The notes under the pieces are model-generated. The model did not search any database and had not been told where the DNA came from. It saw only the letters and a list, made by a program, of their open reading frames with translations. A DNA stretch of 29,663 bases from a virus (taxonomy: Duplodnaviria; Caudoviricetes). This document shows, piece after piece, positions 3,969 through 22,694 of the stretch (the first letter of the stretch is position 1; the number at the start of each line of letters is the position of its first letter). The DNA is taken from the IMG/VR virus record IMGVR_UViG_3300002301_000047, positions 1 through 29,663 of that record; one strand, given 5' to 3'. Made by a program: the position numbers and the translations under genes.

Positions 3969-4027
3969 TATTTTACATAATATTGAATCTATCGAATTTT
4001 GTTATATATTTATAATAAAATTTATAT

Positions 4028-4525: not shown

Positions 4526-4772
4526 TGGTGGAACAAGTGAAATCGTTACTGATACAGGATTAGTTTATTGCTTTGATAATAGAATTCATACAAAGACAAA
4601 GAATAGTCTATATTTAGGTTATCCAAGAGATAATAATTCAAATCTGATTAAAGACTCGGATTTATTGATAAAAGAAATAATTGAGTTGTTAAAAGAATAC
4701 AAGCATCCTTTTTATCAAGTATCAATTGATAATTTAATTACTGAAATTCAGAAAAAAGATTTGGTAGTTTAA
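4512..4772 (+). CDS. Hypothetical protein (possibly 5'-truncated)
   Basis: 86 aa ORF starting inside the DUF4326 remnant. Confidence 0.55.
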   Translation: MLLTDGGTSEIVTDTGLVYCFDNRIHTKTKNSLYLGYPRDNNSNLIKDSDLLIKEIIELLKEYKHPFYQVSIDNLITEIQKKDLVV

Positions 4773-4793
4773 ATATAAGTTCGTATATTTGCA
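4760..4793 (+). promoter_or_regulatory. Bacteroidota-type promoter (-33 TTTG, -7 TATATTTG) upstream of the leader and tRNA array
   Basis: TTTG 4760-4763, TATATTTGCA 4784-4793; same decamer at 2602, 7262, 7567, 8115, 12595, 14263, 16236, 19290, 21952, 26141. Confidence 0.8.
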
Positions 4794-4864
4794 TTCTATT
4801 AAAAAGTTCTTTAAAATATTTTACTTATTATTTTTTAAGACTTTACACTTTTGTAAAAAGTGAT

Positions 4865-4872
4865 ATATTTAT
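4865..4872 (+). promoter_or_regulatory. Second recurrent promoter-like motif ATATTTAT
   Basis: Also just upstream of starts at 1135, 4006, 5594, 6505, 8461, 11996, 21126, 27717 and on minus strand at 19066 and 19249. Confidence 0.65.
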
Positions 4873-4901
4873 AATTAACGGGGAAACCCATAAACAAAAA
4901 G

Positions 4902-4988
4902 ATGATGGTACGATTTAATAACATATTTGATTTTAATTTTGAAGCAGCTGAGGCGGATTGTCCCCAGATGTCAAGGTATTGTCGTTAA
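4902..4988 (+). CDS. Putative leader peptide MMVRFNNIFDFNFEAAEADCPQMSRYCR
   Basis: 28 codons, A-rich leader, between promoters and a terminator; F/D/E/A-rich core. Confidence 0.65.
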   Translation: MMVRFNNIFDFNFEAAEADCPQMSRYCR

Positions 4989-5008
4989 CTTATAAGAGAG
5001 AATAAACG

Positions 5009-5040
5009 AAGCCCTTGACTTGATTGTTAAGGGTTTTTTT
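5009..5040 (+). terminator. Intrinsic terminator / attenuator hairpin
   Basis: AAGCCCTTGAC-ttgatt-GTTAAGGGTTT with the T run continuing to 5040. Confidence 0.8.
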
Positions 5041-5047
5041 CATTTAC

Positions 5048-5080
5048 GGAATATTAGTGAAATGGTATATGACGCTCCCC
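5048..5080 (+). pseudogene. 5' half of a tRNA-Asp-like gene
   Basis: GGAATATTAGT...TCCCC resembles 5' half of tRNA-Asp at 10715; stops before the anticodon loop. Confidence 0.55.
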
Positions 5081-5089
5081 GTAAAAAAT

Positions 5090-5160
5090 GGAGGTATAGT
5101 TTAGTGGTAAAATGCTGGTTTGTCACATCAGTGTCACGATTTCGATTATCGTTATCTCCG
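5090..5160 (+). tRNA. tRNA-Asp(GTC)
   Basis: Acceptor GGAGGTA/TATCTCC, anticodon arm CTGGT-TTGTCAC-ATCAG, T arm ACGAT-TTCGATT-ATCGT. Confidence 0.85.
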
Positions 5161-5198
5161 CAGAGTTCTTTGATTTATGATATTTGTAAAAAGTCATT

Positions 5199-5218
5199 TT
5201 CGAATCTTATTCTCACCA
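5199..5218 (+). pseudogene. 3' fragment of a tRNA gene
   Basis: TTCGAATCTTATTCTCACCA = T loop plus 3' strands with no 5' partner. Confidence 0.4.
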
Positions 5219-5260
5219 CGAAATGGGTTGAAGATATACATTGAGTGGAATCTTCACAAT

Positions 5261-5333
5261 GGGCTGTTGGTATAGCTGGCTAACACACTTGCCTTGCACG
5301 CAGGAATCATCGGTTCGAGGCCGATACGGTCCA
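5261..5333 (+). tRNA. tRNA-Ala(TGC)
   Basis: GGGCTGT/ACGGTCC with G3:U70, anticodon arm CTTGC-CTTGCAC-GCAGG. Confidence 0.9.
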
Positions 5334-5339
5334 CTTTAA

Positions 5340-5510
5340 ATGATGATTATGACATATTACATTAATCCTAGTGGTATTGTAATTGCCACTTTGACAAATT
5401 ATGGAAAGTTTATCGTTCAAGATAATAGTATTTTAGATGCAACATTGAAAATGGGTAAATTAATTGATAATCATTTAAAAAGGTTTGGAAATTTGGGGGT
5501 AAAGCTCTAG
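5340..5510 (+). CDS. Small hypothetical protein between the two tRNA-Ala genes
   Basis: 56 aa own translation; 3' end runs into the next tRNA. Confidence 0.35.
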   Translation: MMIMTYYINPSGIVIATLTNYGKFIVQDNSILDATLKMGKLIDNHLKRFGNLGVKL

Positions 5511-5567
5511 TGGATGAGCACGTGCTTTGCAAGCATGAGGTTGTGGATTCGAGTTCCACTACCTCCA
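5495..5567 (+). tRNA. tRNA-Ala(TGC)
   Basis: GGGGGTA/TACCTCC with G3:U70, anticodon arm CGTGC-TTTGCAA-GCATG. Confidence 0.9.
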
Positions 5568-5615
5568 CTCTTGACTTTTTTGTACTTTTCGGTATATTTA
5601 TTATAAAAGATAGAT

Positions 5616-6381: not shown

Positions 6382-6454
6382 GGTAAAGTTGCCAAGTTGG
6401 TCAAGGCGAACGACTGAAAATCGTTTTATAAGAGTTCAATTCTCTTCTTTACCA
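6382..6454 (+). tRNA. tRNA-Phe(GAA)
   Basis: GGTAAAG/CTTTACC, anticodon arm AACGA-CTGAAAA-TCGTT, T arm AAGAG-TTCAATT-CTCTT. Confidence 0.9.
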
Positions 6455-6516
6455 CAAAGTAGTAGCGTTAGAAAATTAAAATTAGCACTTCTAACAATCT
6501 TGATATATTTATTAAT

Positions 6517-7844: not shown

Positions 7845-7846
7845 AT

Positions 7847-7867
7847 GCTACCATGGTAAAGTGGTTA
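7847..7867 (+). pseudogene. 5' fragment of tRNA-Glu
   Basis: 7840-7867 is identical to 9187-9214 (28 nt). Confidence 0.75.
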
Positions 7868-8103
7868 TCATAAATTTTTTAATTATTTCAGACGATGAGG
7901 TTGAAAAAATTAAAGATTTTAATACCCCTAGTCACTTACAAATGAATGATACCTTAAGGCGATTTGGTCATGATATGATTTCATTTACTGAGTATTTAAG
8001 TGGGGAAAAATTATGGGAATTTTCACCAAAAGAGTTCTTTCAAGATAGTAAAAAAACTCTAAAATTTTTTACTGGAAAATTAAATTTTTATTTGCAAGAT
8101 TAA
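7861..8103 (+). CDS. Hypothetical protein or 5'-truncated remnant
   Basis: GTG start lies within the tRNA fragment. Confidence 0.4.
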   Translation: MVIINFLIISDDEVEKIKDFNTPSHLQMNDTLRRFGHDMISFTEYLSGEKLWEFSPKEFFQDSKKTLKFFTGKLNFYLQD

Positions 8104-8135
8104 GATATAAATCGTATATTTGCATTATATAAAAC

Positions 8136-8394
8136 GGGTAAAAAATAGCATACAGCACATTAGTGAATTTTGGTTTAAGACACTGTTGAGGTGCGCTACT
8201 AATTAGGATGTTATTTCTGAAGACGTTTTAAGTTTGTCTCTTTGTGACGGAACACATTAACTGAATAGAAATCAGGAGAAAATTCTTAAGACCCTAGTAA
8301 GATAGTTCTAATTAACGGTCATCAGGAAAAATTAAGAAGGGTTTAGAATATTTCCGATTCTAAATAGGTCCTTAAATGTTATTTGTTAATACCC
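8136..8394 (+). ncRNA. Candidate ~260-nt structured RNA
   Basis: Follows promoter at 8115; ends pair (GGGTA..AAATAGCAT / ATGTTATTT..TACCC); internal hairpin TTTAGAAT/ATTCTAAA; no ORF. Confidence 0.45.
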
Positions 8395-8398
8395 AAAT

Positions 8399-8421
8399 GG
8401 TGCGGTAGCTCAGTTGGTAGA
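8399..8421 (+). pseudogene. 5' fragment of a tRNA-Phe-like gene
   Basis: 8395-8421 identical to 10507-10533 and similar to start of 8986. Confidence 0.75.
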
Positions 8422-8472
8422 AAAATATTTTAAAAATGTGTGCTTTTATCCTTTTTCAATATATTTATAGAT

Positions 8473-8985: not shown

Positions 8986-9057
8986 GGTGCGGTAACTCAG
9001 TGGTAGAGTGTCTCCCTGAAGAGCATGGTGTCGTCAGTTCGATTCTGACCCGTACCA
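8986..9057 (+). tRNA. tRNA-Phe(GAA)-like with mispaired anticodon stem
   Basis: Acceptor, D and T arms good; TCTCC-CTGAAGA-GCATG has two mismatches. Confidence 0.65.
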
Positions 9058-9193
9058 CAAGATGCTCTGGCCGTCCAGAGAATTGAGTAGATGAAACATA
9101 GGTCGTTTAGTCACAAGAATAAATAGGAGACACGCATATCGGTCCGAAATGCCGTGGCAGGTCTTAAAACGCCAGTAGGGGTCCTATTTAAAT

Positions 9194-9265
9194 GCTACCA
9201 TGGTAAAGTGGTTAATACGCTACCCTTTCACGGTAGAGTCACGGGTTCGATTCCCGTTGGTAGTA
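9194..9265 (+). tRNA. tRNA-Glu(TTC)
   Basis: GCTACCA/TGGTAGT, anticodon arm CTACC-CTTTCAC-GGTAG. Confidence 0.9.
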
Positions 9266-9417
9266 CGGGAGCTGATATACTGGTGCACAAGTTATCAATG
9301 AAAGCCTTAGAGCACAATCATTAATCAATGATGCTATGGTATTGCAGCAGGGTATTAAGAGTAGAGTGAATGAGACCCTTGGCAAATGTATCATACGCCA
9401 AGAAACTCTTTAAAAAT

Positions 9418-9503
9418 GCTATGGTCGACTAGCGGCTTAGGTCGCCTCCCTTTCAAGGAGGTGGGGAGTAATCCCCTCACGGGTTCGAATCCCGTCCATA
9501 GTA
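9418..9503 (+). tRNA. tRNA-Glu(TTC) with long variable arm
   Basis: CCTCC-CTTTCAA-GGAGG; variable hairpin GGGGA-GTAA-TCCCC. Confidence 0.85.
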
Positions 9504-9742
9504 CAAATGTGTTAGGTTATTTAGTATTTTGAAGGAACTCTTAAGAAAGGTAATCGGGTGGGTTGCATAGTCAGGTGCGAACAACTATTCGTTCAAGTCG
9601 AATCACATTTACTAGTAGCCTGTTGTAAAGAGACTCTTAAAATGGAAAGATACCATAAGAGACGGTGGTAAATGCTTTACGACAAAAGTTTGTTCTTTGA
9701 TAAAATGGTTTTTGATGTGATATATTAATCAAAAAGAAAACT

Positions 9743-10140: not shown

Positions 10141-10230
10141 GGGCGGTTAGCTCAGTCGGTAGAGCAATGGAGGACATGGAGATGAAACATCTTCACTACT
10201 TGGTCGGTGGTTCGAATCCATCACTGTCCG
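10141..10230 (+). ncRNA. tRNA-like RNA with remodelled anticodon arm
   Basis: Canonical acceptor (G3:U70), D and T arms; anticodon region replaced by TGGAGATG-AAA-CATCTTCA hairpin. Confidence 0.75.
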
Positions 10231-10236
10231 CAAAAT

Positions 10237-10510: not shown

Positions 10511-10597
10511 GGTGCGGTAGCTCAGTTGGTAGAGCAATGAGGACCAGCGATGGTCATGAAAACTCATGTGTCGGTGATTCGATTACACCCTGCACCA
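10511..10597 (+). ncRNA. tRNA-Phe-like RNA with 14-nt hairpin inserted in the anticodon loop
   Basis: ATGAG-[GACCA-GCGA-TGGTC]-ATGAAAA-CTCAT. Confidence 0.75.
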
Positions 10598-10714
10598 CGA
10601 TTGTTAAAACGCTGGCTTCGTTTTGAAATGATGGATAACATGCCGAACAGAAACACCATCAAGAAGGAAAGTCTGCAACTAAACCTGCTTAGCTTTTGGA
10701 ATGTAAAGGCAAAT

Positions 10715-10788
10715 GGAATATTAGTAGAGTTGGTTACAATATCCCCCTGTCACGGGGAAGGTCACGGGTTCGAATCCCGTATATTCCG
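10715..10788 (+). tRNA. tRNA-Asp(GTC)
   Basis: GGAATAT/ATATTCC, anticodon arm TCCCC-CTGTCAC-GGGGA. Confidence 0.92.
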
Positions 10789-10925
10789 CTGGTTAGTTCT
10801 TTTTTGGTTACTGTAGAAACAAATAGGGAAGCACCCCGATAAGGACCCGATAGAGTGGTCTTTTTGACTTCATGAGTATTTAGGTCCTTCAGTGGCCACA
10901 AGAGAGGTGCAAGCTGACCAAACTT

Positions 10926-10994
10926 GGAGATTTGGTGTAATTGATAGCATGGCCCACTGTCTGGGTTGGCGAGGTTTAAGTCCTTAGTTCTCCG
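10926..10994 (+). pseudogene. Degenerate tRNA-Asp-like sequence
   Basis: GGAGA/TCTCC, GCCCA-CTGTC-TGGGT 5-nt loop, T loop TTTAAGT. Confidence 0.5.
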
Positions 10995-10999
10995 CAAAT

Positions 11000-11107
11000 G
11001 TTCTGATAGAATACTGGTTGTATTCACAATATGTAAGAGCCCATATACCAATTGCTGCTTTATGGGACAGAAAAGTTGAGGGGAAAGTTCGATTCTTTCG
11101 AAGGACA
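11000..11107 (+). ncRNA. tRNA-like RNA with large anticodon-arm insertion
   Basis: D arm GAAT/ATTC, T arm GAAAG-TTCGATT-CTTTC, insert with CCCATA/TATGGG stem; acceptor imperfect. Confidence 0.55.
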
Positions 11108-11138
11108 CATTAATAACAAAATTTAAAAAGTGAGCATT

Positions 11139-11992
11139 ATGAAACAGCTGGACGCATTTGGCTCACAGGACAGTATATAAAGTTCTGTGAGGATAAAAAA
11201 ATCGAATTTAAGATGGAAGAAAGTATCACATCCTACGATGATACAACCCTATTTTGCCCATCAGGTATGCAACAATTTAAGTCCTTATTCAAGGATATAA
11301 ATTACAAGGGAACACAGTCGAATATTCAACCATGTCTACGGTTGAACGACATCGAAGAAATAGATGATGGAACACATCTACTTTATTTCAATATGATTGG
11401 GTTATTCTCATTCCGAGAACTAACTCTTACTTACACAATTGATTTTTGGTTTGAATTCTTAGGTACTATCGGTATTGTACCAGATTACGTTACTATCCAC
11501 CCAGATAAATTGGACTGGAAGGAATTTTATGTTAAGCATAACGTTGAAGTTAGGCTTGATGAAGGATGCCTTTGGACTGATGGTGAAATTGGCGGTTACT
11601 GTACTGAATTCTATAAGAATGATATAGAGATTGGCAATATTGTTAATACTCTAGGTACATGTATTGACGTTGGTTTTGGTCTTGAGAGATTAGAATTGAT
11701 ACTTACTGGTAATAAGCCATCTAAGGAAAGTACACTTAGAGAGAGTATAATGAAGATTATTGATAGCGGTGTATTACCAAGTCATAATAAACAAGGCCAT
11801 ATACTAAAGAAGCTATTACGGCTTTGTTATCGTGAAGGTATTGAGATTGACCATCAATTATATCGTGACGAAGTAATTAGGAATGATAAGATAAAACTTA
11901 AATGGGAACGTTTAAAAGACAAGTTTAGTCATATGTCAGATGAATGGTTTTGGAATACACATGGAATTGACGTAACGTTATTTAGAAAATAA
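11139..11992 (+). CDS. alaS: Mini alanyl-tRNA synthetase (aminoacylation domain only); N-terminus in another frame
   Basis: DDTTLFCPSGMQQFK, QPCLR, HLLYFNMIGLFSF, EIGNIV, IDVGFGLERL, PSHNKQGHILKKLLR; ATG 11139 needs a -1 shift to join the 11213 frame. Confidence 0.85.
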
Positions 11993-12568: not shown

Positions 12569-12619
12569 ATAGTTGTTTGTATCAAAAAATGTTGTATATT
12601 TGCAACATAAACAATTCAT

Positions 12620-12871
12620 ATGATGAGGATAATTAATTTAGTAGAGTCAATTGAGGGAAAAATCAATCAGATACAATCATTTTTAGTTGTTGATGAAAAG
12701 TTGGCGGCTGAAGTACAAGCTAAAGTTGAAAAGAACTTTATCGAAGCTATCAACGACCACACAAGTCCAGCCATTTTAACTAGTGATAGTGAAAAATATT
12801 GGTTAGAAAAAGGACATTTCACAGGTATAAACTACGAATTACAAATTGTTTCATCTTATACAGTACAATAA
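12620..12871 (+). CDS. Hypothetical protein
   Basis: Downstream of promoter at 12595. Confidence 0.7.
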   Translation: MMRIINLVESIEGKINQIQSFLVVDEKLAAEVQAKVEKNFIEAINDHTSPAILTSDSEKYWLEKGHFTGINYELQIVSSYTVQ

Positions 12872-12872
12872 T

Positions 12873-14015
12873 ATGCGAATAGTATTTACAGGCGGACCTA
12901 GTTCTGGCAAAACAACCATTATCAATGAGTTGGCTAAAGAATTTACAGTTGTTCAGGAGCCAGCTAGACACTTACTAAGTGTTCACGGAAATGTCTTGTT
13001 CACGGAACGTGAACGTTTTCAAAATTTACTGGAAGAATTATGTATTGAAAACTTCAACAAATATCCAAATGCATTTTATGATAGAGGGCTACATGATGAG
13101 ATTGCTTATCGTAAACATTTCAATTGCGAGATTAGTGATAAGTTACACGCTGAATGTAAGAATCTTCAATACGACATTGTGTTCGTATTTCCACCTTGGA
13201 AAGAAATATTTGAAAATGATGCGATAAGAAAGGAAACTTTTGAAGAGGCGGCAGTAATTTATGACGGTATAGTAGCTGGCTATAGAGAGTATGGCTTGGA
13301 GCCAATCGTGGTTCCGTTTGGTACAGTTGAGGAAAGGGTTAATTTTATTAAAAGTAATTCAATACCATCAAAACCAAAAAATACTCTAGTTACTAACATA
13401 GGATTTATTGATAATTTTATTGATAGTGATTCATTATTAAGATACCCAACGCATATTGTTTCACATGCTGGTAAGGGAAAGACAGCAATTTTAGCGGCAA
13501 TTGCTTCTAATTTAGTTAGGCAAGATAATAAGCGAATTTATGTTCTAAATGATACTAATGCTAAGGATTTCGCAACTAAGTTTGTATCACATATTACTGG
13601 TGTCAGTATCAAGGATTTAATTTTTGAGGACGCTGCTGACTTAAAGAGTAAAACTCAGCAATATAAGGGTCATAACTCATCAACTTTTGTTAAATTTTTA
13701 CCGCATAGTACCAATTTAGATGAATATTTTGATACCTTAGTTTTAAATATTGAGTTCAATGAGTTCAATGTATTAATATTAGACTTACCAAGTTTCAAAG
13801 GTGTTGATGAACTTATCAGAAAAGTAAAATCTAGGTTTGGAATACCTGTATTTTCAACTAAAAATCTTAGAAATTTTGGTATGTTATTTGACCAAAAACT
13901 TAATAATTTTATAGTTTTGAATGATGAACAAAATGCTGTTGATATTTTAACTAATAGTTATTGTGTTTTACAGCATCCAGTTCAAATTGACTTTCAAACA
14001 TTAAAAATTAGTTAA
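12873..14015 (+). CDS. NadR-like AAA_28 P-loop kinase fused to a degenerate RecA/DnaB-like domain
   Basis: IVFTGGPSSGKTT, EPAR, FYDRG, FPPWKEIFENDAIRKE; second P-loop HAGKGKT. Confidence 0.75.
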   Translation: MRIVFTGGPSSGKTTIINELAKEFTVVQEPARHLLSVHGNVLFTERERFQNLLEELCIENFNKYPNAFYDRGLHDEIAYRKHFNCEISDKLHAECKNLQYDIVFVFPPWKEIFENDAIRKETFEEAAVIYDGIVAGYREYGLEPIVVPFGTVEERVNFIKSNSIPSKPKNTLVTNIGFIDNFIDSDSLLRYPTHIVSHAGKGKTAILAAIASNLVRQDNKRIYVLNDTNAKDFATKFVSHITGVSIKDLIFEDAADLKSKTQQYKGHNSSTFVKFLPHSTNLDEYFDTLVLNIEFNEFNVLILDLPSFKGVDELIRKVKSRFGIPVFSTKNLRNFGMLFDQKLNNFIVLNDEQNAVDILTNSYCVLQHPVQIDFQTLKIS

Positions 14016-14016
14016 T

Positions 14017-14235
14017 ATGATTAATTGGCACGAAGAAAGAGCAACTAAGAATTACTGCGGTTATTGTAATGGATTTCTACCAAGTTCACCTTGCTCTGGT
14101 CTTTGTTTTACGAGTGTGAAGGATGCTCAAAGTAATAGGGTTGACCATATCTTAACTATGCTTAAGAAGATACCTGAAGAAATAGAAGCACTTCAATTAA
14201 AAGAACAAGAATATAAAGACGCATTATCAGCATAA
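14017..14235 (+). CDS. Small Cys-rich hypothetical protein
   Basis: CGYC...CSGLC. Confidence 0.65.
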   Translation: MINWHEERATKNYCGYCNGFLPSSPCSGLCFTSVKDAQSNRVDHILTMLKKIPEEIEALQLKEQEYKDALSA

Positions 14236-14288
14236 AAATTTTGCTGGATAACTCTTTGTTACTATATTTGCATTTTAAAATAAGAAAT

Positions 14289-14852
14289 ATGATACATAAA
14301 ATTGCCCATCAATTGGGTATTAAACTCACTGGGAATGAAACGTCAACTGAAGTTGAAGAATTAATTGTAAAACAATTAGAAACTGTTCCGTATATTCAGT
14401 ACCCAACAGCCTTTCATACGGTAGATATAATTGCTACACGTAATGTTGAATCAACAGTAGATGGTAATTTAGAAGTACTTTTAGGTCGTAAACATAATGC
14501 TACCGATTGGGTTTTTATCGGTGGATTTGTTGAACCAACTCAAACTGCTGAGGCCGCTGCTCTTCGTGAATTACATGAAGAAACAAATGTATTCGTTGAT
14601 AACGAGCATAGATTAGAATATCTCGGCTCATTATTCATTGACGATTCAAGGTATAAAGATTCACCACATAAAATTACTACCAGTATATTCACTGTCTCCT
14701 TAACAAGGGATGAAGCGTCACAAGCTAAAGGCGGTGATGATATTGCTGAGGTTAAATGGGTAAAATTGAATAAAATACTACCATTATTAAAGGACCATCA
14801 CGTTCCATTGTATAACAAATTTTTGGACTGGTATAGTGATACAAATGCTTAA
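14289..14852 (+). CDS. Nudix hydrolase, ADP-ribose pyrophosphatase-like
   Basis: GGFVEPTQTAEAAALRELHEET Nudix box, TVD, GGDDIAEVKW; start set after promoter at 14263. Confidence 0.88.
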   Translation: MIHKIAHQLGIKLTGNETSTEVEELIVKQLETVPYIQYPTAFHTVDIIATRNVESTVDGNLEVLLGRKHNATDWVFIGGFVEPTQTAEAAALRELHEETNVFVDNEHRLEYLGSLFIDDSRYKDSPHKITTSIFTVSLTRDEASQAKGGDDIAEVKWVKLNKILPLLKDHHVPLYNKFLDWYSDTNA

Positions 14853-14855
14853 AGT

Positions 14856-15455
14856 ATGAGTAAGTTAGATGAATACAAAGAAAAAAAGCGTATTGAAGCT
14901 TTAGGTTTACCAACGATGTGGATTGTTAAATCAACTAAAGAGACTGGTGTTGAAGAACCGTATGAAGTTCAAACAAAGGAGATTTTTAAAATAGGTACTA
15001 GAAGGTATAATGATAAGCCTAATATTGATGTTTATTGTTATAGGTTAGTTAATAATGGTTATCCTTATGAGGTCGATATTGAGGAAGGTGCAATTAGTGG
15101 AATATCTGAGGGTTATGGTACTGGGTTCGGTGACTTATGGGTATGGACATACTATAGCAGTCTTTCAAAAGAGGATGCTTTTGCATACTATGAGAAAGAA
15201 AAGCGAAGGCTTGAAAACAAGTCATTACTGAAGGCGATTGAAATTGTGCTTGAGACTAAGCCTCATCACGAAATTCTTGAAAAATTTGCTCGTGAAAAGT
15301 ATAATGAAAGATTTACAGGTGAAAAAACACCCTATAATGCTTTTCATTACTACTCAAGGTATAACATACTTGACAACAATACCATTGCAATAGAGTATAA
15401 ATACGGTGCTGGTGATATGGAATTTGATGATTCATTTAACGTAAAAATAGACTAA
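14856..15455 (+). CDS. Hypothetical protein
   Basis: 199 aa ORF in operon-like packing. Confidence 0.75.
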   Translation: MSKLDEYKEKKRIEALGLPTMWIVKSTKETGVEEPYEVQTKEIFKIGTRRYNDKPNIDVYCYRLVNNGYPYEVDIEEGAISGISEGYGTGFGDLWVWTYYSSLSKEDAFAYYEKEKRRLENKSLLKAIEIVLETKPHHEILEKFAREKYNERFTGEKTPYNAFHYYSRYNILDNNTIAIEYKYGAGDMEFDDSFNVKID

Positions 15456-15457
15456 TT

Positions 15458-15823
15458 ATGGAAATTACACACGAAAATATGCATAAGGGCCTTGAACACG
15501 CTGAGGTTAGGGATTTTATTTCGACTCAGTTTTGTGAAATTCAAGATAAAGAAAACAAAAATCGGCCAGTACGAGTTGAAGTTATTGACAACGATTATAT
15601 GCGTTATCGAATTGAGTCACTTGAGCTTGAGATAAAATCAAAACAACTAGCACTTGAATTAGCAAATCATTTAAGAGCGTTGTTTACAATCATGAAGACT
15701 TTTAACTGGAAAAGCTATGATGTTTCGGAAGAACTAAAGTGTTATATAACTATTGGTTTTAAGAACTTTATTGGTACCGCTGAGGAGTACAATGCGTTAA
15801 TTGCATCATTACCAAAACAATAA
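15458..15823 (+). CDS. Hypothetical protein
   Basis: 121 aa ORF. Confidence 0.75.
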   Translation: MEITHENMHKGLEHAEVRDFISTQFCEIQDKENKNRPVRVEVIDNDYMRYRIESLELEIKSKQLALELANHLRALFTIMKTFNWKSYDVSEELKCYITIGFKNFIGTAEEYNALIASLPKQ

Positions 15824-15826
15824 TTT

Positions 15827-16204
15827 ATGACTATACCTATTAATATTTGGGATGATTTCTATGATGACGGATATATCCCCAAAGGCGAAAATCAAAATAC
15901 ATACATTTATATTGAGGAGTCTAATATGCCTTTAGATAAGCAAGAGTCAATTTTACAAATTCTATTAGAACACTTAAATACTAATGTTAGATTGGATGGT
16001 GTTACTCTTAGATTATTTCTTAATGATACATCCTCAAAATATCCTCAATGGATTGGTACTGAGCACGAGTGGATGCTATATAAGCGTTGGGAAATTAGGA
16101 TTGATGACTTAACACATAAACGTTTAAATACCCTTGTTGGTGAGTTAAATAACGCTCATTTGGATTATGAAGGTGTTCCTTTTAGAATTTATTCAGAATC
16201 TTAA
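15827..16204 (+). CDS. Hypothetical protein
   Basis: 125 aa ORF. Confidence 0.75.
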   Translation: MTIPINIWDDFYDDGYIPKGENQNTYIYIEESNMPLDKQESILQILLEHLNTNVRLDGVTLRLFLNDTSSKYPQWIGTEHEWMLYKRWEIRIDDLTHKRLNTLVGELNNAHLDYEGVPFRIYSES

Positions 16205-16264
16205 AAAATAATTTTGCCAGTATCAAAAAAGATTGTATATTTGCATCACAATAAATAATTAATA

Positions 16265-16492
16265 ATGAAAGTAAATAATATTCTAAAAAATTTATCGGAC
16301 GATAAACTATTAGTTTTAGTTGAAGAAATAAAAAATCCAGTCGTCCCAGAAGATGCATTGATTAGAAAAGTTATTCTTGACGCATTTGGAGAAATTAACA
16401 TATTAGCTCTTCAAATTAATGAGTTGCTTTGGCCTTTATTAGAAGTTATTTCTGAAAGATTTAAATGTTATTCTCCACACATTCAAAAATAA
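16265..16492 (+). CDS. Hypothetical protein
   Basis: Downstream of promoter at 16236. Confidence 0.7.
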   Translation: MKVNNILKNLSDDKLLVLVEEIKNPVVPEDALIRKVILDAFGEINILALQINELLWPLLEVISERFKCYSPHIQK

Positions 16493-16497
16493 ATACA

Positions 16498-18153
16498 ATG
16501 AATATTAAAAATTACAAGAGAAAAAATCACGAAGTCCCACGTTTACTATGGGGTGACGCTTACACAGTTGGTTCAAATGAGTTTGAATCAGATGATGCTA
16601 AAGATTTATCAGTCTATTACGTATGTGCTAGAAGATTCCTCGATAAAATCAATCCAAATCTTTATAACGAAAATGATAGTCGTTATATCCTCTCTGGCTT
16701 AAGTCGTATTATCGACAATCTATTCTTCAAGCCAATCACAATGGAAGAAATACTTGAAACTGACAAGTTCTTGGAGTTTGCCAAGGTAACAACTAAGGGC
16801 TTAGTTAGGTTTAACTATCCAAGAGAGCTTTGGGTTTCAATAGTTGAAAATTATGGTGGTCGTATACCTATCGAAATAAAGGCATTACCTGATGGTAGCG
16901 TATTTTATCCACATGAGCCATTTGCTGAAATAAGAAACTTACCTAAAGGTTTTGGTGTATTAGCCGCTTGGTTTGAAAGTAAAATACTTCAAGTCTGGGC
17001 TTCAACTGAAATGACAACCCAAATTGAGCACTGGATGCTTTATTACAAAGATTTGCTTGATAAGGTTTATGGTGACACAATGTCAGAAGCTGACAAAGAT
17101 TTCACCGCACGTTTAATGCTTCATAATTTTGGTGATAGAGCTGGTATTTGCCAACAAGAATCTGAATGGTTGGGTGAAACAGTAACTCTTTCAGTTGCTG
17201 GTACCGATACATTCTCAGGTGGTTATTCCGCTTGGAAAAATAGTAACGAACAAGCTGGTGTCGCATTATCTGTAGCTGCGTTAGCACACAGAAATGTTGA
17301 ATCATATCCTACGGAATTTGAATGTTTCAGAGCGTTGTATAACAACTTAAAGGATAATGAAATTGGGTCATTTGTTGCCGACTGTAACGACTTCTTTAAA
17401 GCTGTTGCAACGATTGATAATGGTATTGTTCACCCAGATTGTCTTTTAGGTCTTGCGCTTGAATCAAAAACTACAGGTAATGGTAAGATAGTTGTTGCTC
17501 GTCCTGATAGTGGTATTGCCGTTGACCAAGTACTTTGGTTGTGTCGCTTGGCTAAAGAACATGGACTTTATCGTGAAATTGTTGTTGGTGCTAAGACGTG
17601 GTATGGTGCCACATTCCTTAAATTCATCGAAGGTGATGGTATGAAATGGGAAACTATGAAGGAAATCAACGCTGCTTTATTGGCTGAAGGTTTCTTACCT
17701 TGGGAATGGGGTCTTTACGGTGTTGGTGGTGGTCTTAGGAACGACATCAAGCGTGATAATGGTTCATTTAAATACGCTCTTTGCGCTGTAGGTCTTATGT
17801 TATCACCAAGAGTTAAGTTTTCTGAAACTGCTGGTAAATCTACACTTGGTGGGCCGTTTAAATTGCTTCGTGACCCAGATTCTTTGGCTAATGGTACCAC
17901 AATAGTATTTTATAACGAAGCTGGTATTGATGCTAGAGTTGTATATTACAATGGTACTTTAGGCGATGATTGTTTTGGTGACATCATGGCTGAAAACAAC
18001 AATGATATTAAGGCTCGTATTAAGGACCAATTATCTTGTATGCCAGCTAGGTTGATTAATGATGTACCAGCAAGTGATGCGGTTATTAATACTCGTTTAG
18101 AGATATTGGCTAAGAATGCTCCAAATAAGCTTGAATTCTTTACAAATAAATAA
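16498..18153 (+). CDS. Nicotinamide phosphoribosyltransferase-like protein (Nampt/NadV family)
   Basis: DAY, IPIEIKALPDGS, LHNFGDRA, GTDT, VVARPDSG, IEGDG, YGVGGGL, KRD; ATG at 16498. Confidence 0.85.
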   Translation: MNIKNYKRKNHEVPRLLWGDAYTVGSNEFESDDAKDLSVYYVCARRFLDKINPNLYNENDSRYILSGLSRIIDNLFFKPITMEEILETDKFLEFAKVTTKGLVRFNYPRELWVSIVENYGGRIPIEIKALPDGSVFYPHEPFAEIRNLPKGFGVLAAWFESKILQVWASTEMTTQIEHWMLYYKDLLDKVYGDTMSEADKDFTARLMLHNFGDRAGICQQESEWLGETVTLSVAGTDTFSGGYSAWKNSNEQAGVALSVAALAHRNVESYPTEFECFRALYNNLKDNEIGSFVADCNDFFKAVATIDNGIVHPDCLLGLALESKTTGNGKIVVARPDSGIAVDQVLWLCRLAKEHGLYREIVVGAKTWYGATFLKFIEGDGMKWETMKEINAALLAEGFLPWEWGLYGVGGGLRNDIKRDNGSFKYALCAVGLMLSPRVKFSETAGKSTLGGPFKLLRDPDSLANGTTIVFYNEAGIDARVVYYNGTLGDDCFGDIMAENNNDIKARIKDQLSCMPARLINDVPASDAVINTRLEILAKNAPNKLEFFTNK

Positions 18154-18162
18154 TGATAAATT

Positions 18163-18187
18163 AAAAGCGTCCTAGGACGCTTTTTTT
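18163..18187. terminator. Bidirectional terminator
   Basis: Perfect palindrome AAAAGCGTCCTAGGACGCTTTT between convergent genes. Confidence 0.85.
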
Positions 18188-18881
18188 ATATTTTATTTCT
18201 TTTAATATCCCGATTATAGTAACTACATAGTGGTTGCAAATTAGTATAATGGTTTAAATTTATCATATCATCATCACTTAGGGCCTTTGATGACGGAATA
18301 ATATGGTCAATATCCCAACCGTAATTTAATTCACCATTGTATAATCCATAATTATTCCAGTTCATCCAAGGTTCAAATTTACTTTCTAAATGAATTTTAA
18401 ATTCTTCAAAGTTACAACCTAATATCAAATAAGTTCTGGATGTTTTCTTATAACCATTTCGTTTAAATGCAGTTCTAATAGACGCTCTAATATTATTAGA
18501 AAGTTTATATAATGGGTCATTTTGGTTACGTTCCCGTTCTCGGTTGTTTCGTTTATCTTTATTATTTTTTCTGTATTCTTTATGGTATTCTTTTTGATAT
18601 ATTTTTATTTTATCTTTATTCGCTTCACGATAGTCATTGCGATGTAGTTTATTATATTCTTTTTGATATGAATTTATTTTATCTTTATTAGCTTCACGAT
18701 ATACTTTTTTTTCTTCTTTTATTTTATCTTGATTCTTGGCACGATATTTTTTAACCCGTGCTAAGACAGCATTTTTATTTTCTAAATAATATTTTTTTGA
18801 ATTTTTTAAACTATACTCTCTAAGGTATTCTTTACGTTTTTCCTTTGCGGCTAATTTTTGTTCCTCAGTAAGTTTTCTCAT
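18186..18881 (-). CDS. HNH-type endonuclease with basic helical N-terminus
   Basis: LGCNFEEFKIHLESKF...WDIDHIIP...NHYTNLQPLC; ATG at 18881. Confidence 0.82.
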   Translation of the reverse strand: MRKLTEEQKLAAKEKRKEYLREYSLKNSKKYYLENKNAVLARVKKYRAKNQDKIKEEKKVYREANKDKINSYQKEYNKLHRNDYREANKDKIKIYQKEYHKEYRKNNKDKRNNRERERNQNDPLYKLSNNIRASIRTAFKRNGYKKTSRTYLILGCNFEEFKIHLESKFEPWMNWNNYGLYNGELNYGWDIDHIIPSSKALSDDDMINLNHYTNLQPLCSYYNRDIKRNKI

Positions 18882-19044
18882 TTGTACCAATTTTAATATT
18901 AGTCTTATTGAAATAATCTTCAAGCAACCACTCAAAGAATTTACTCTTATTCTTAACATCGGAGATGCAGTCTAACAGCTCATTAGGTATCTGAATACTT
19001 ACTGTTACCTTCTTGTCTTTAACTTCTTTTTTGTTTCTTCCCAT
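18865..19044 (-). CDS. Ribbon-helix-helix-like small DNA-binding protein
   Basis: MGRNKKEVKDKKVTVSIQIPNELLD...NKSKFFEWLLEDYF (59 aa); ATATTTAT upstream. Confidence 0.65.
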   Translation of the reverse strand: MGRNKKEVKDKKVTVSIQIPNELLDCISDVKNKSKFFEWLLEDYFNKTNIKIGTNEKTY

Positions 19045-19106
19045 AATATTTGTTTTTGTATATTAATAAATATCTGGAAAATATAAAAACAGTCAAAAGA
19101 TTGTAT

Positions 19107-19244
19107 TTATTTTTTACGATTTTGGGAAAACTTCTTTAATAAGCTGACTAGGAGCTGATTACGATTATAGTTACCTTCTTTAATTTTTTCAATTAGTGGT
19201 GCCGATATAGTCACGCTTATTTTAGTAGTATTTGTATCTTTCAT
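19107..19244 (-). CDS. Second RHH-like small protein
   Basis: MKDTNTTKISVTISAPLIEKIKEGNYNRNQLLVSLLKKF (45 aa); ATATTTAT upstream. Confidence 0.55.
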   Translation of the reverse strand: MKDTNTTKISVTISAPLIEKIKEGNYNRNQLLVSLLKKFSQNRKK

Positions 19245-19264
19245 GAAAATAAATATAATAAATT

Positions 19265-19346
19265 ATTTGTTTAAGTCAATAAAAGTTAGTATATTTGCAT
19301 TCTAATCGGGAACAGGTTATCTGAACAAAATTAAATTATGAAAAAA
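19265..19346 (+). repeat. Promoter plus 5'UTR repeat, copy 1 (copy 2 at 21927-22007)
   Basis: Shared ATTTGTTTAA.TCAATAAAAGT..GTATATTTGCAT and TCGGGAACAGG..ATCTGAACA...AAATTATGAAAAAA. Confidence 0.8.
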
Positions 19347-20162
19347 TTATTATTATTTAGTATTTTAGTATTTTTAAGGTTTATATCTTTTGGTCAAGAA
19401 TATAATGATATTTTTTTGGGAAATGATGTTAATTCTTACAAAGGATTGTATTTGAGATATAGGGAGGGTACAATTGGTGAAATGGAGTATTGCTTTTATA
19501 ACAATAAGCCGTCAAAAAGGTTTGAAACACCTGTCTATCACCCTGAACAAGAATACAACTTTAACACGGATACATCATCTATTAAAAATAGGGATTTTTT
19601 AGTTGTAAACATATATGATTTTGATGATAAACATTATATCTTTGAATTAAAAGATACTATAAAAAATGAAACAATTTGGTTTATTTACAATTCCGAATAC
19701 AATTTTAATTTTCCATTTAGGGTTAAGGGGTTTTCATATAATTCAAATGCTGTTATAAAGTTCATTGATAAAAAAATTGATGAATTTACTGGTGAAATAA
19801 CATATCAAACCCCCATAGATAAAGATATGGTATTAATTAAGGTTATACATAAAGGTGTTTTACCAAAATATTATCTTAGTTTAGAGGCAAATGGTAATAC
19901 ATTAACTTATCGTGCGAATGGTGCTATAATTCTATTTACTGATGGTACTAAATTATCTAAACCAAATGAAAAAATTGATGTTAGATATATTGGCGGTGAT
20001 AGTTGGAGATACAGTGCGTTTATTAGATTAACACAAGAAGATTTATTGATTTTATCTAAAAAAGAAATTAGTAAATTTAGATTATATCTTTACGATAATT
20101 TCGCACCTGATGAACCAAATAAATTAATGTTTTTAACGCAAGCAATTATTAAATTAAAGTAA
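19338..20162 (+). CDS. Exported protein with Sec signal peptide
   Basis: MKKLLLFSILVFLRFISFG|Q. Confidence 0.78.
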   Translation: MKKLLLFSILVFLRFISFGQEYNDIFLGNDVNSYKGLYLRYREGTIGEMEYCFYNNKPSKRFETPVYHPEQEYNFNTDTSSIKNRDFLVVNIYDFDDKHYIFELKDTIKNETIWFIYNSEYNFNFPFRVKGFSYNSNAVIKFIDKKIDEFTGEITYQTPIDKDMVLIKVIHKGVLPKYYLSLEANGNTLTYRANGAIILFTDGTKLSKPNEKIDVRYIGGDSWRYSAFIRLTQEDLLILSKKEISKFRLYLYDNFAPDEPNKLMFLTQAIIKLK

Positions 20163-20163
20163 T

Positions 20164-21090
20164 ATGGTAAAGATAGCTTCATGCAGCAGTACTAAGTATT
20201 TATTCGATAAAATTACTAACCCAGAACTTGTTGGTTATAAAGTTGAGTTAAGCACACAAAAATTTTCAGACGGTGAAATGGCTGTTCAGTACTTAGAATC
20301 AATTCGTGGTCGTGACCTATTTCTTTTGGCCGATACATCACAAAATCTAACAGAGTTATTATTAGCTCTTGATGGTGCAATAAGAAGTTCCGCTAAATGT
20401 ATTACAGTTATATTACCTTATTATGGCTATGGTCGCCAAGATAAGAAGGATGGTCATAGAGGCTCATTAGGTGCATCAGTTATGGCACACGCATTACAAT
20501 CATTTGGCGTTGACCGTGTTGTATCAATTGACCTTCACGCTGACCAAATTCAAGGTATGTTCAATATTCCATTGGAACATATCAAGGGTCATAGTGTATT
20601 CATTGATTACGTTCAAAATAACATTGACCTCACTAATATGATATTGTGTTCGCCAGATGCTGGTGGTGTTCATAGAGTTCAAAAGTATGGTGGTAAGTTG
20701 AATTTACCAATGGTTTCAATCAATAAAAGAAGAGATAAACCAAACTCTATTGCTTCAATGGAGCTTATTGGTTCTGTTAAGGGTAAGAATGTCATGATTA
20801 TTGATGATATTGTGGATACTGCAAATTCCTTAGTTAAGGCAACGGATTTGTTGCTAGAACAAGGTGCTTTGAAGGTGTATTGTGTTGCAACTCATCCCGT
20901 ACTTAGTGGGGATGCTTATACTAATATTGCTAACTCAAAAATTAACCAATTAATTGTTAGTGATACGATTAAGTCAACTAATCCTGATTTTATAAATAAT
21001 AGAATTAAAACTGTTTCTTGTGTTCCTGTGTTGGAGAAGGTTATTACGAATTTGATAAATGACGATTCAATTTCAGAAATTAATCAATAA
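20164..21090 (+). CDS. prs: Ribose-phosphate pyrophosphokinase
   Basis: FSDGE, PYYGYGRQDKK, DLHADQIQG, SPDAGG, IIDDIVDT, THPVLSG. Confidence 0.92.
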   Translation: MVKIASCSSTKYLFDKITNPELVGYKVELSTQKFSDGEMAVQYLESIRGRDLFLLADTSQNLTELLLALDGAIRSSAKCITVILPYYGYGRQDKKDGHRGSLGASVMAHALQSFGVDRVVSIDLHADQIQGMFNIPLEHIKGHSVFIDYVQNNIDLTNMILCSPDAGGVHRVQKYGGKLNLPMVSINKRRDKPNSIASMELIGSVKGKNVMIIDDIVDTANSLVKATDLLLEQGALKVYCVATHPVLSGDAYTNIANSKINQLIVSDTIKSTNPDFINNRIKTVSCVPVLEKVITNLINDDSISEINQ

Positions 21091-21137
21091 TGTGACAAAT
21101 ATCTTTAGCGTTTTCGATTTTCCAGATATTTATTATT

Positions 21138-21944
21138 ATGGAAAAAAGAAAACAAATTAAATGGACTGAAGAGTTAATTGAAAAATTAAGATGTGTTTGG
21201 ACCTCAGGTTCAACGGAAGAGATAAATTTAGCTTTTGACGGTATACCTAATAGTACTTTACGTGAAACAGCTAGAAGATTTGGTATAAAGCGTGGTTATG
21301 AATTTAAGTGTAAGCGTAAATTAGCAAATCTTTTAACTGAAAACGCATACAACTATTATTGGTTAGGTTTTATAATGGCCGATGGCCATTTTAGTAAAAA
21401 GGGTGAACTTAAAATTAGTTTAGGTCTTAAGGATATTGAACATCTTAAAAAATTCGGACAATACGTAAACGCTAACATTCATATAAAAGATGCTCAAACA
21501 TATGGTAAGTATACAAGTGATAAATCTTGTTGTTTGACAATTATGGACGTTAATTCAGTTAGGACATTATCTGAAAGATTTTGTATTAATAGTACTAAAA
21601 CTTATGAAGCATGTTCATTGGATTGTTTAGATACTGATGATAAATTTTTAGCTTTTTTTACAGGTCTTGTTGATGGTGATGGATGCATTACACAAAATAA
21701 GACTGGAAATGTTAATATGCTTCGTATTCAATGTCATAGTTCTTGGTTGAATGTTTATTGTCAAATTGGTGAACGATTGAAACGATTATATAATATTGAC
21801 TATAAATGTTATATTGATAAAACTGGATATTGTAAATTTGCTATCTATCGTTATGAGTCATTAATAAAAATAAAAAATGAGGTCATTAAACTAAATATTC
21901 CATTATTAGAAAGAAAATGGGATAAGATTTGTTTAATTCAATAA
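21138..21944 (+). CDS. Double-motif LAGLIDADG homing endonuclease
   Basis: WLGFIMADGH and FFTGLVDGDG. Confidence 0.88.
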   Translation: MEKRKQIKWTEELIEKLRCVWTSGSTEEINLAFDGIPNSTLRETARRFGIKRGYEFKCKRKLANLLTENAYNYYWLGFIMADGHFSKKGELKISLGLKDIEHLKKFGQYVNANIHIKDAQTYGKYTSDKSCCLTIMDVNSVRTLSERFCINSTKTYEACSLDCLDTDDKFLAFFTGLVDGDGCITQNKTGNVNMLRIQCHSSWLNVYCQIGERLKRLYNIDYKCYIDKTGYCKFAIYRYESLIKIKNEVIKLNIPLLERKWDKICLIQ

Positions 21945-21998
21945 AAGTCTGTATATTTGCATCATATTCGGGAACAGGAAATCTGAACATAGGAAATT

Positions 21999-22694
21999 AT
22001 GAAAAAAATAAGTATAATGGTGGTTCTAATGACTGTACTAATGAGTTTTATGTCTTCTGGACAAAGTTTAGGGAAATTAAAACTTGGTATGTCAATAAAC
22101 GATATACCTGAATTAAAAGAGGCGGATACTACTTCATCTTATGATACGTACATGAATAAAATTTTTGGGAGTACTAAAAAGAGTTCAATTTGGGAGATAC
22201 TTCGAGATACGGTAAATAATTCAAACGATTATGCTTCATTATCTAAAAATGTAAGGATATTTTATATTGGTAGTATAAAAATTTCTTCAAATATTTCTAT
22301 TGAGCAGGTTGAATTAAAATTTTATGATGATTCGCTTTATTATATTGTCTGCGAAAGTAACCGAACATTAGAAGAAGCTTTAAAAACTAAATATTTGGAG
22401 CCAAAGATAGAGGTAAAAGAAAACCCAAAAGAATACACAAATGGTTACGGAAATAAAATTATAAAAACAGATGTTTCATATACCACATCATACTTTGAAA
22501 AAGATAATATAATACTTAATACTTATCTTTCTAAAAGTTTTAGTACATATTCTCAAGATTTTTTTTATTTTGATAAGGTGTTTTTATATAATAATAAAAT
22601 AACTGAAATTGTAACAAAACAAGAAGAAATAGTTAAAGCTAGAATTGAAAAACGCAAAGAAGAAAGTAAAAAGAAACAATTTGCTGACTTTTAA
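21999..22694 (+). CDS. Exported protein with Sec signal peptide
   Basis: MKKISIMVVLMTVLMSFMSSG|Q. Confidence 0.78.
   Translation: MKKISIMVVLMTVLMSFMSSGQSLGKLKLGMSINDIPELKEADTTSSYDTYMNKIFGSTKKSSIWEILRDTVNNSNDYASLSKNVRIFYIGSIKISSNISIEQVELKFYDDSLYYIVCESNRTLEEALKTKYLEPKIEVKENPKEYTNGYGNKIIKTDVSYTTSYFEKDNIILNTYLSKSFSTYSQDFFYFDKVFLYNNKITEIVTKQEEIVKARIEKRKEESKKKQFADF

Follow-up and report, generated by a model that had tools for sequence, protein, structure and literature searches.

It has long been an open question why phages carry tRNA genes (PMC10264068, consulted in part), and the locus analysed here adds another: why should a tRNA array be preceded by a short open reading frame and an intrinsic terminator? 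The initial annotation proposed a leader-peptide attenuator that controls the array. The window, that is, the whole stretch of 29,663 nucleotides that was analysed, comes from the virus record IMGVR_UViG_3300002301_000047 (G+C = 32%), and the promoter-like motifs, leader, terminator and tRNA genes located below lie on its + strand. It also encodes a CCA-adding enzyme, a PTH2-like hydrolase, an AlaRS-like fragment, NAD-salvage genes and several homing endonucleases. Relatives of the CCA enzyme lie on 33 viral loci, on contigs of up to 519 kb; among GenBank phages the best match is just 36% identical. The NAD/PRPP salvage cluster (12846-22694) comprises a NadR-like kinase, a Nudix gene, a nicotinamide phosphoribosyltransferase and a PRPP synthetase, with a second PRPP-synthetase piece beside a LAGLIDADG gene. 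Directly 3' of the Ala-containing array, an ORF of 259 aa (11213-11992) matches the N-terminal part of AlaRS only (PF01411, residues 6-97); it is kept at 96-99% in loci L022 and L023.

The array spans 5.7 kb. ARAGORN finds nine tRNAs there, all Asp, Ala, Phe or Glu, which confirms the four identities first read downstream of the terminator. Both ARAGORN and Rfam recognize tRNA-Asp(GTC) at 5090-5161, the first intact gene 3' of the terminator; tRNA-Ala(TGC) at 5261-5334 and 5495-5568, each with the identity pair G3:U70 as read from the sequence; tRNA-Phe(GAA) at 6382-6455 and 8986-9058; tRNA-Glu(TTC) at 9194-9266 and 9418-9504, the latter with a long variable region; and tRNA-Asp(GTC) at 10715-10789, which closes the array. 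Rfam reports a further tRNA-like gene at 10141. Both this gene (10141-10231) and another at 10511-10598 have an enlarged anticodon arm. The second resembles tRNA-Phe 8986 in its body, lacks G3:U70 and has an extra hairpin beside a GAA-containing stretch; its ARAGORN label, Ala(AGC), is doubtful, and an Ala(AGC) call is also made at the corresponding place in the relatives L001 and L002. Fragments are interspersed with the intact genes. The 5' half of a tRNA-Asp-like gene (5048-5082), read from the sequence and matched by neither ARAGORN nor Rfam, stops at the anticodon loop and occupies the place of the first intact tRNA-Asp of L001 and L002. At 5185-5222 lies a tRNA 3' half whose match is a tRNA-like gene in L002. 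Upstream of inserted genes the 5' ends of tRNA-Phe (8986/10511 type) and tRNA-Glu (9194) recur as near-copies, at 8399-8421 and 7846-7869 respectively, as if endonuclease insertion had duplicated the 5' part of the tRNA. Long, more G+C-rich non-coding stretches between the tRNAs (8130-8400, 9060-9190, 9505-9740 and 10790-11120) gave no Rfam match and are possibly further structured RNAs.

Between promoter motif and tRNA genes stands the short ORF, 28 codons at 4902-4988 as annotated. Its true start is probably the second ATG (4905, hence 27 codons), because this codon has the better context and is the sole ATG kept in L001, in L002 and in a further allele found in run contigs (X1/X2). It has an A at -3, -6, -12 and -13 and no Shine-Dalgarno sequence (determinants from PMC6847099, consulted in part). 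Codons 9-19 (4926-4958) do read F-D-F-N-F-E-A-A-E-A-D, as had been pointed out, so that 10 of 11 match the tRNA identities supplied downstream. The chance that the best 11-codon window of a 27-codon ORF holds at least 10 such codons is 6e-5 (phage background 0.23); over the whole leader the excess of Phe, Asp, Glu and Ala is modest (11/27, P=0.033). The last putative regulatory codon, Asp 4956-4958 (codon 19), comes one codon before the predicted switch, described below, begins.

Two promoter motifs had been seen before the leader, and both are there. The first, P1 (4760-4791), is of Bacteroidota type, with TTTG, 20 nt and TATATTTG (4784); its distance from the leader is about 230 nt greater in L002, and none was seen in the L001 stretch 12600-14300. 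P2 (4842-4871), made of TTTACA (4842), 16 nt and TATATTTA (4864), is the motif kept directly before the leader in close relatives, at the same position in L001 and L002. A second promoter-like class is present beside the Bacteroidota type (TTGAAT, TTTACA, TTGACT or TTAGCA, 16 nt, TATATTTA). It occurs at 4005, 4864, 5593, 6504 and 8460 (weaker at 8460), stands before the leader and the endonuclease genes, and may be read by a sigma factor of the phage. The Bacteroidota promoter consensus is TTTG/TANNTTTG (PMC6847099, a partial source, which also gives the determinants of start signals). Promoters and starts of this type fit the window, because TATATTTG occurs 12 times on the + strand and 0 times on the - strand, mostly about 20 nt 3' of TTTG or a similar T-rich run, and because a Shine-Dalgarno-like 4-mer is found in only 7 of about 130 leaders. 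We infer a Bacteroidota host.

Sequence and folding bear out the intrinsic terminator that was claimed before the array (5010-5040): a 10-bp stem with a 6-nt loop (5010-5035) runs into T7 (5034-5040), for -13.5 kcal/mol alone. GTCAAGG at 4970-4976, late in the ORF, is indeed the exact reverse complement of CCTTGAC at 5013-5019, in the terminator 5' arm. An inner helix (4982-4986 with 5005-5009) lengthens this 7-bp pairing into a predicted antiterminator (4970-5019, -12.1 kcal/mol alone). That the match is due to chance, a caveat raised at the outset, is disfavoured by shuffling (shuffles pair 4.0 nt on average, the true sequence 7; P=0.007) and by compensatory change in relatives. In simulated nascent RNA the pairing of 4970-4976 with 5013-5019 holds (P=0.99) as long as the free 3' end lies no further than 5031, and the terminator wins once that end has passed 5033. 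RNA polymerase holds the last 8-9 nt at the U-tract; this places the free end near the fold crossover, so that the outcome is likely kinetic. Because the terminator fold is 7 kcal/mol more stable in the full-length RNA (-20.3 vs -13.3 kcal/mol), read-through would need kinetic trapping. A long hairpin (4901-4911/4976-4986) might have served as an anti-antiterminator, but was discarded because its pairing, as read, is poorer in L001 and because it loses to the antiterminator in nascent folds.

The fold was then computed with a ribosome masking part of the leader (13-nt footprint, the A-site codon being stepped along the ORF). In this model sequestration of the terminator 5' arm is 0.83 for codons 1-20 and then falls, with 0.32 for codon 21 and 0.05 for codon 22; it is 0.33-0.39 at codons 24-27 and ends at 0.04 at the stop. 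The ribosome is thus predicted to flip the fold just 3' of the last cognate codon (19), with a geometry in which a stall on the regulatory codons frees the antiterminator and a ribosome at the stop covers it. The mechanism would run as follows. In a Bacteroidota host, translation of the leader would keep pace with transcription. As long as a ribosome waited at codon 20 or earlier, 4970-4976 would stay free to capture the terminator 5' arm before the 3' arm is made; a ribosome at codon 22 or later would cover this segment, and the terminator would form. The signal would be too little usable charged tRNA for Phe, Asp, Glu or Ala, and the new tRNAs would speed leader decoding again, which makes a negative feedback. 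Untranslated transcripts would also read through. Nuclease attack, heavy phage translation and starvation are candidate natural causes of slow decoding; tRNA shortage seems the more sensible signal, because extra tRNA helps little when amino acids are lacking.

Relatives keep this arrangement. In L001 and L002 the window-type leader has 25 codons; a 3-nt indel leaves the frame intact, the stop has moved, and antiterminator and terminator arm are both changed at one and the same pair. In the X1/X2 allele this same pair (4972, 5017) has undergone a compensatory change, position 4973 shows a wobble change, and 3 nt are inserted in frame. The 7-bp pairing is therefore accompanied by compensatory changes in relatives. 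More distant F/D/E/A leaders (L069, L135 and L167) each have their own helix; those of L069 and L167 precede A/D/E/F arrays, and the L135 locus ends after one Phe gene. The helices differ accordingly: GTCAAGG/CCTTGAC in the window, GTTAAGG/CCTTAAC in L001, CCGAAGG/CCTTCGG in L069. When the five alleles (window, L001, L069, L135 and L167) are paired with one another's arms, the own arm gives the lowest duplex energy in 4/5 rows, the L001 leader having its own arm level with that of the window (-6.9 vs -7.0). Searches by motif yielded little more. The exact antiterminator-terminator pattern was met at 19 loci in viral contigs, none with the leader-terminator-array layout, and these we regard as chance; the pattern used on metagenomes gave six loci, namely the window itself, the L001 and L002 alleles repeated and three chance matches, which had entered alignment A2 and caused it to be dropped. 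A search with the three-leader alignment returned two records, both already known, and no new ones. GenBank phages gave no match to the window leader DNA or to two leader peptides.

If the leader senses the tRNAs that it gates, its codons should change with the array. A pipeline blind to codons collected 26 distinct terminator-before-tRNA heads, 25 of them with an ORF (set 1; its thresholds were chosen after loci had been seen, and related leaders are not independent). The stop-to-stem gap is 21-36 nt in 24/25. Codons cognate to the array are in excess at P<0.05 in 24/25 leaders, the exception being L083 5827, which has no excess over the whole ORF (P=0.64). In more distant phages a CCA gene is followed by a Trp/Ser/His/Ile/Asn/Met/Arg array, and the leader of that array is rich in those residues. 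Whole-record regions hold up to four arrays (C/V/L; P/Q/Y/T/G/K; W/S/H/I/N/M/R; F/E/D/A), which together cover all 20 amino acids, and in G003 all four have a matched leader. Where the tRNAs are grouped differently, in G008 and G009, with five and two leaders, the leaders follow the grouping. The true pairing of leaders with arrays ranks first in 5/5 multi-array genomes, and for 12 leader families 0/200,000 permutations reach it. The co-variation of leader codons with array content that the initial annotation had suggested looking for is thus seen across related phages. The excess also has a boundary: before the antiterminator 325/502 codons are cognate (132 expected), after it 65/234 (68 expected). 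In the masking model the arm is sequestered in 22/25 leaders with a stalled ribosome and in 0/25 with a ribosome at the stop; a strict complement test was passed in just 11/25, and a duplex test in 14/25. Some arrays are leaderless: the F/E/D/A and Met arrays of G002, and all but one of the arrays examined in G007. In the complete genome of G002 (L065 18568) the leaderless F/E/D/A array comes after a protein gene that has a promoter-like motif of its own; the other three large arrays there do have leaders. As a separate observation, tRNAs with the amber-reading anticodon CTA recur in these loci (L001 1529, L027 5122, L029 5408, L032 4539, L033 8155, L040 5295 and L059 9578).

Conservation, co-variation, compensatory pairing and the predicted fold flip all support the attenuator proposed at first. 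From these comparisons of sequences and models we hold with considerable confidence that the leader is a ribosome-mediated transcription attenuator with negative feedback, gating tRNA genes.

How much of the window's array it gates is a distinct matter. Six promoter-like motifs lie inside the array (the first at 5571-5600, the others at 6504, 7262, 7567, 8115 and 8460), before homing-endonuclease and unknown genes. The possibility that the array is transcribed from promoters 3' of the terminator, which was initially named as a threat to the attenuator, is thus partly realized. These motifs could serve 6/9 tRNAs without the leader, including both Phe and both Glu genes, so that the leader's Phe and Glu codons match genes that may have other promoters. 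Therefore only Asp 5090, Ala 5261 and Ala 5495, the last tRNA before the first internal motif, clearly depend on read-through, and it is these three alone that the window leader clearly governs. One might go further and suppose that the terminator merely insulates the array, its tRNAs being made from internal promoters and the leader being a decaying relic or a chance ORF. The internal motifs, the breaking up of the array by homing-endonuclease genes and tRNA fragments, and the victory of the terminator at equilibrium would all suit this idea. We nevertheless find it most unlikely: P2 is directed towards the terminator from a position 30-60 nt ahead of the ORF, the interval 5041-5568 contains neither TATATTT[GA] motif, and alleles with many differences between them have all preserved the frame, the codon run and the pairing. 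Moreover, 19/25 units of set 1, including the 395-nt F/E/D/A array of G003, have no internal promoter-like motif, and 212/236 tRNAs precede the first such motif. Since set 1 units mostly lack internal motifs, the window appears to be an array later invaded by mobile genes.

Could the peptide, or the terminated leader RNA, act in trans, and a phage or host antitermination factor set the read-through? A 10-mer at 4805-4814, just 3' of P1, resembles a boxA, and could possibly be a Nus-type antitermination or processing signal. It occurs four times in the window, always on the + strand (4805, 5164, 5797 and 7165; 0.57 expected), and similar runs, at about 9692 and 10795, follow tRNAs. Attenuator peptides with roles in trans do exist (peTrpL, from a source consulted in part). 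However, the boxA-like motif lies upstream of P2, so that P2 transcripts would not contain it, and the peptides share no sequence across arrays. The C-terminal part of the peptide even shifts frame while the RNA pairing is kept. This was observed in a second family of 11 leaders, where 53/55 core cells pair, two alleles are compensatory and the core is read in two frames; the count is anchored on the motif and replaces one made on a misregistered alignment (A4: 71% paired, 73% when slid by one). Such an account seems to us scarcely credible.

A second sample asked for no codon criterion, its pattern being a terminator shortly before a tRNA T-loop. It comprises 126 viral loci from 9/64 parts of the collection, from which about 900 stretches are estimated overall; 46 loci have short flanks, hence cut arrays, and a few overlap set 1. 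Among its 117 distinct heads 105 have an ORF, with a gap of 18-36 nt in 96 of these, and 12 have none; an ORF with such a gap is found in 95/111 cases, against 14.2 in shuffled upstream DNA. The matching test used 79 unlike leaders, arrays of >14 amino acids being left out, and gave a mean z of 2.42 against 0.12 (0/100,000 permutations), with z <=0 in 10/79 leaders. The model sequesters the arm in 68/79 with a stalled ribosome and in 5/79 at the stop; 41 are expected from shuffled RNA. For arrays in which Ser, Arg or Leu is represented by one codon box only, the leader uses that box in 60/94 codons (48.1 expected, P=0.009, kin not removed), which lends weak support to the view that leaders sense tRNA species rather than amino acids. 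Two arrays of 21-22 tRNAs (L119 4879 and L134 4884, strand-wise) serve all 20 amino acids, each with just one leader before it; that of L134 uses most amino acids once or twice.

With both samples at hand, it may be asked whether a real switch reports general translation speed, or lost coupling of the ribosome, the codon match playing little part. Several features would be compatible with such a sensor: the antiterminator is predicted to keep the arm sequestered without any ribosome in 19/25 and 84/105 leaders, the predicted effect of a stall is equal at every codon up to 20, and some leaders sample most of the code. The codon content, by contrast, follows the array both within and between genomes, with an excess that stops at the antiterminator; Gln runs precede Gln arrays and Lys runs precede Lys arrays; and several different leaders per genome would be needless for a general sensor. 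We therefore judge it very unlikely that the codons matter so little, and keep to an attenuator read by its cognate codons.

Cultured phages also carry such leaders. Two phages of Cellulophaga, phi38:1 and phi4:1, which infect Cellulophaga baltica, and the Maribacter phage Panino have two each in their tRNA regions (six in total; P between 0.0002 and 0.036), which bear no annotation or are listed as hypothetical proteins; two further heads before tRNA genes have no ORF. The leaders lie at 35283-35360 and 36744-36833 in phi38:1 and at 87065-87133 and 89771-89869 in phi4:1. Phage phi38:1, for which an RNA-seq time course exists, is described as lacking an RNA polymerase of its own, and the part of that account at our disposal mentions no terminator (PMC5335546). 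No matched leader was seen in 401 bacterial genomes of the phylum to which L098's Reichenbachiella genome belongs: 11 matched the terminator-before-tRNA pattern (5 control matches), 7 of these had a tRNA nearby, and none had a matched leader, three being cut by contig ends. On the attenuator reading, the element of the window is one module of a genome-wide set, with one leader per tRNA block. A bolder proposal, to which we give somewhat less than even credence, is that phages of Bacteroidota possess a code-wide bank of translation sensors, every tRNA block being coupled to a leader that samples the codons decoded by its tRNAs; these sensors would detect host tRNAs that have been cut (by an anticodon nuclease, for example) or exhausted, and transcribe only the replacements, as a self-limiting counter-defence.

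A codon-specific switch before each tRNA block implies that tRNAs are made on demand, when decoding slows. This would favour the depletion explanation of phage tRNAs over constant codon compensation, and it opens that explanation to experiment: any one leader can serve directly as a reporter for its own set of tRNAs, and leaders are present in cultured phages whose hosts are known. Phage tRNAs have been presented as a counter to the depletion of host tRNAs by anticodon nucleases, PARIS and retrons (PMC10264068, PMC11464382 and PMC11555353, all consulted in part). This role would give a reason to make tRNAs when those of the host are lost. In the portions consulted, no sensor controlling phage tRNA transcription was found in these three papers, and PMC10264068 mentions neither attenuation nor promoter nor leader. 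More generally, we found no description of attenuation of phage or array tRNA genes in the open-access literature, subscription papers being largely outside this search.

Among known regulators, the mobile, surplus tRNA array of Anabaena PCC 7120 (the trn operon, or L-array, governed by TrcR) is likewise switched on when translation is impaired (PMC8421152, PMC10272220, both partial sources). Its control, however, relies on a protein repressor acting at the promoter of the whole array, with a direct-repeat operator over the promoter, whereas control in the phage would be by a predicted RNA switch with array-specific codons; the part of PMC8421152 consulted mentions neither attenuation nor a leader. 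T-box riboswitches sense tRNA charging and switch an intrinsic terminator too. T-boxes control some tRNA-Ala operons in Clostridia. They bind tRNA directly, through a stem I with a specifier loop and an antiterminator with the T-box bulge, and need no ORF. Over the phage leader neither a T-box nor any other cis-regulatory Rfam family matched, whether at gathering score or with E relaxed to 5.

The closest likeness is with the attenuators of amino-acid operons, trp, his, pheA, leu and pheST, and the multivalent leaders of thr and ilvGMEDA. A short ORF with regulatory codons, mutually exclusive antiterminator and terminator, and read-through upon slow decoding define leader-peptide attenuators (PMC1183508, consulted in part), and the layout of the phage element is the same. 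What differs is the target: phage tRNA genes instead of biosynthetic enzymes or a synthetase. Indeed, the first genes 3' of the window's terminator are tRNAs, and the AlaRS-like fragment comes 6 kb further on, behind internal promoter-like motifs. Folding of the leaders also revealed no conserved anti-antiterminator, or 1:2 pause hairpin to synchronise ribosome and polymerase, that would block the antiterminator in untranslated RNA, and therefore an untranslated leader is predicted to read through, not to terminate more. Finally, one phage leader covers from 1 to 13 or more amino acids, and the set of leaders divides the code among arrays. Comparison of sequences thus strongly supports a known mechanism, ribosome-mediated attenuation, applied to a new kind of target, tRNA genes; if this is true, leader-peptide attenuation would extend to a product that directly speeds its own sensor.
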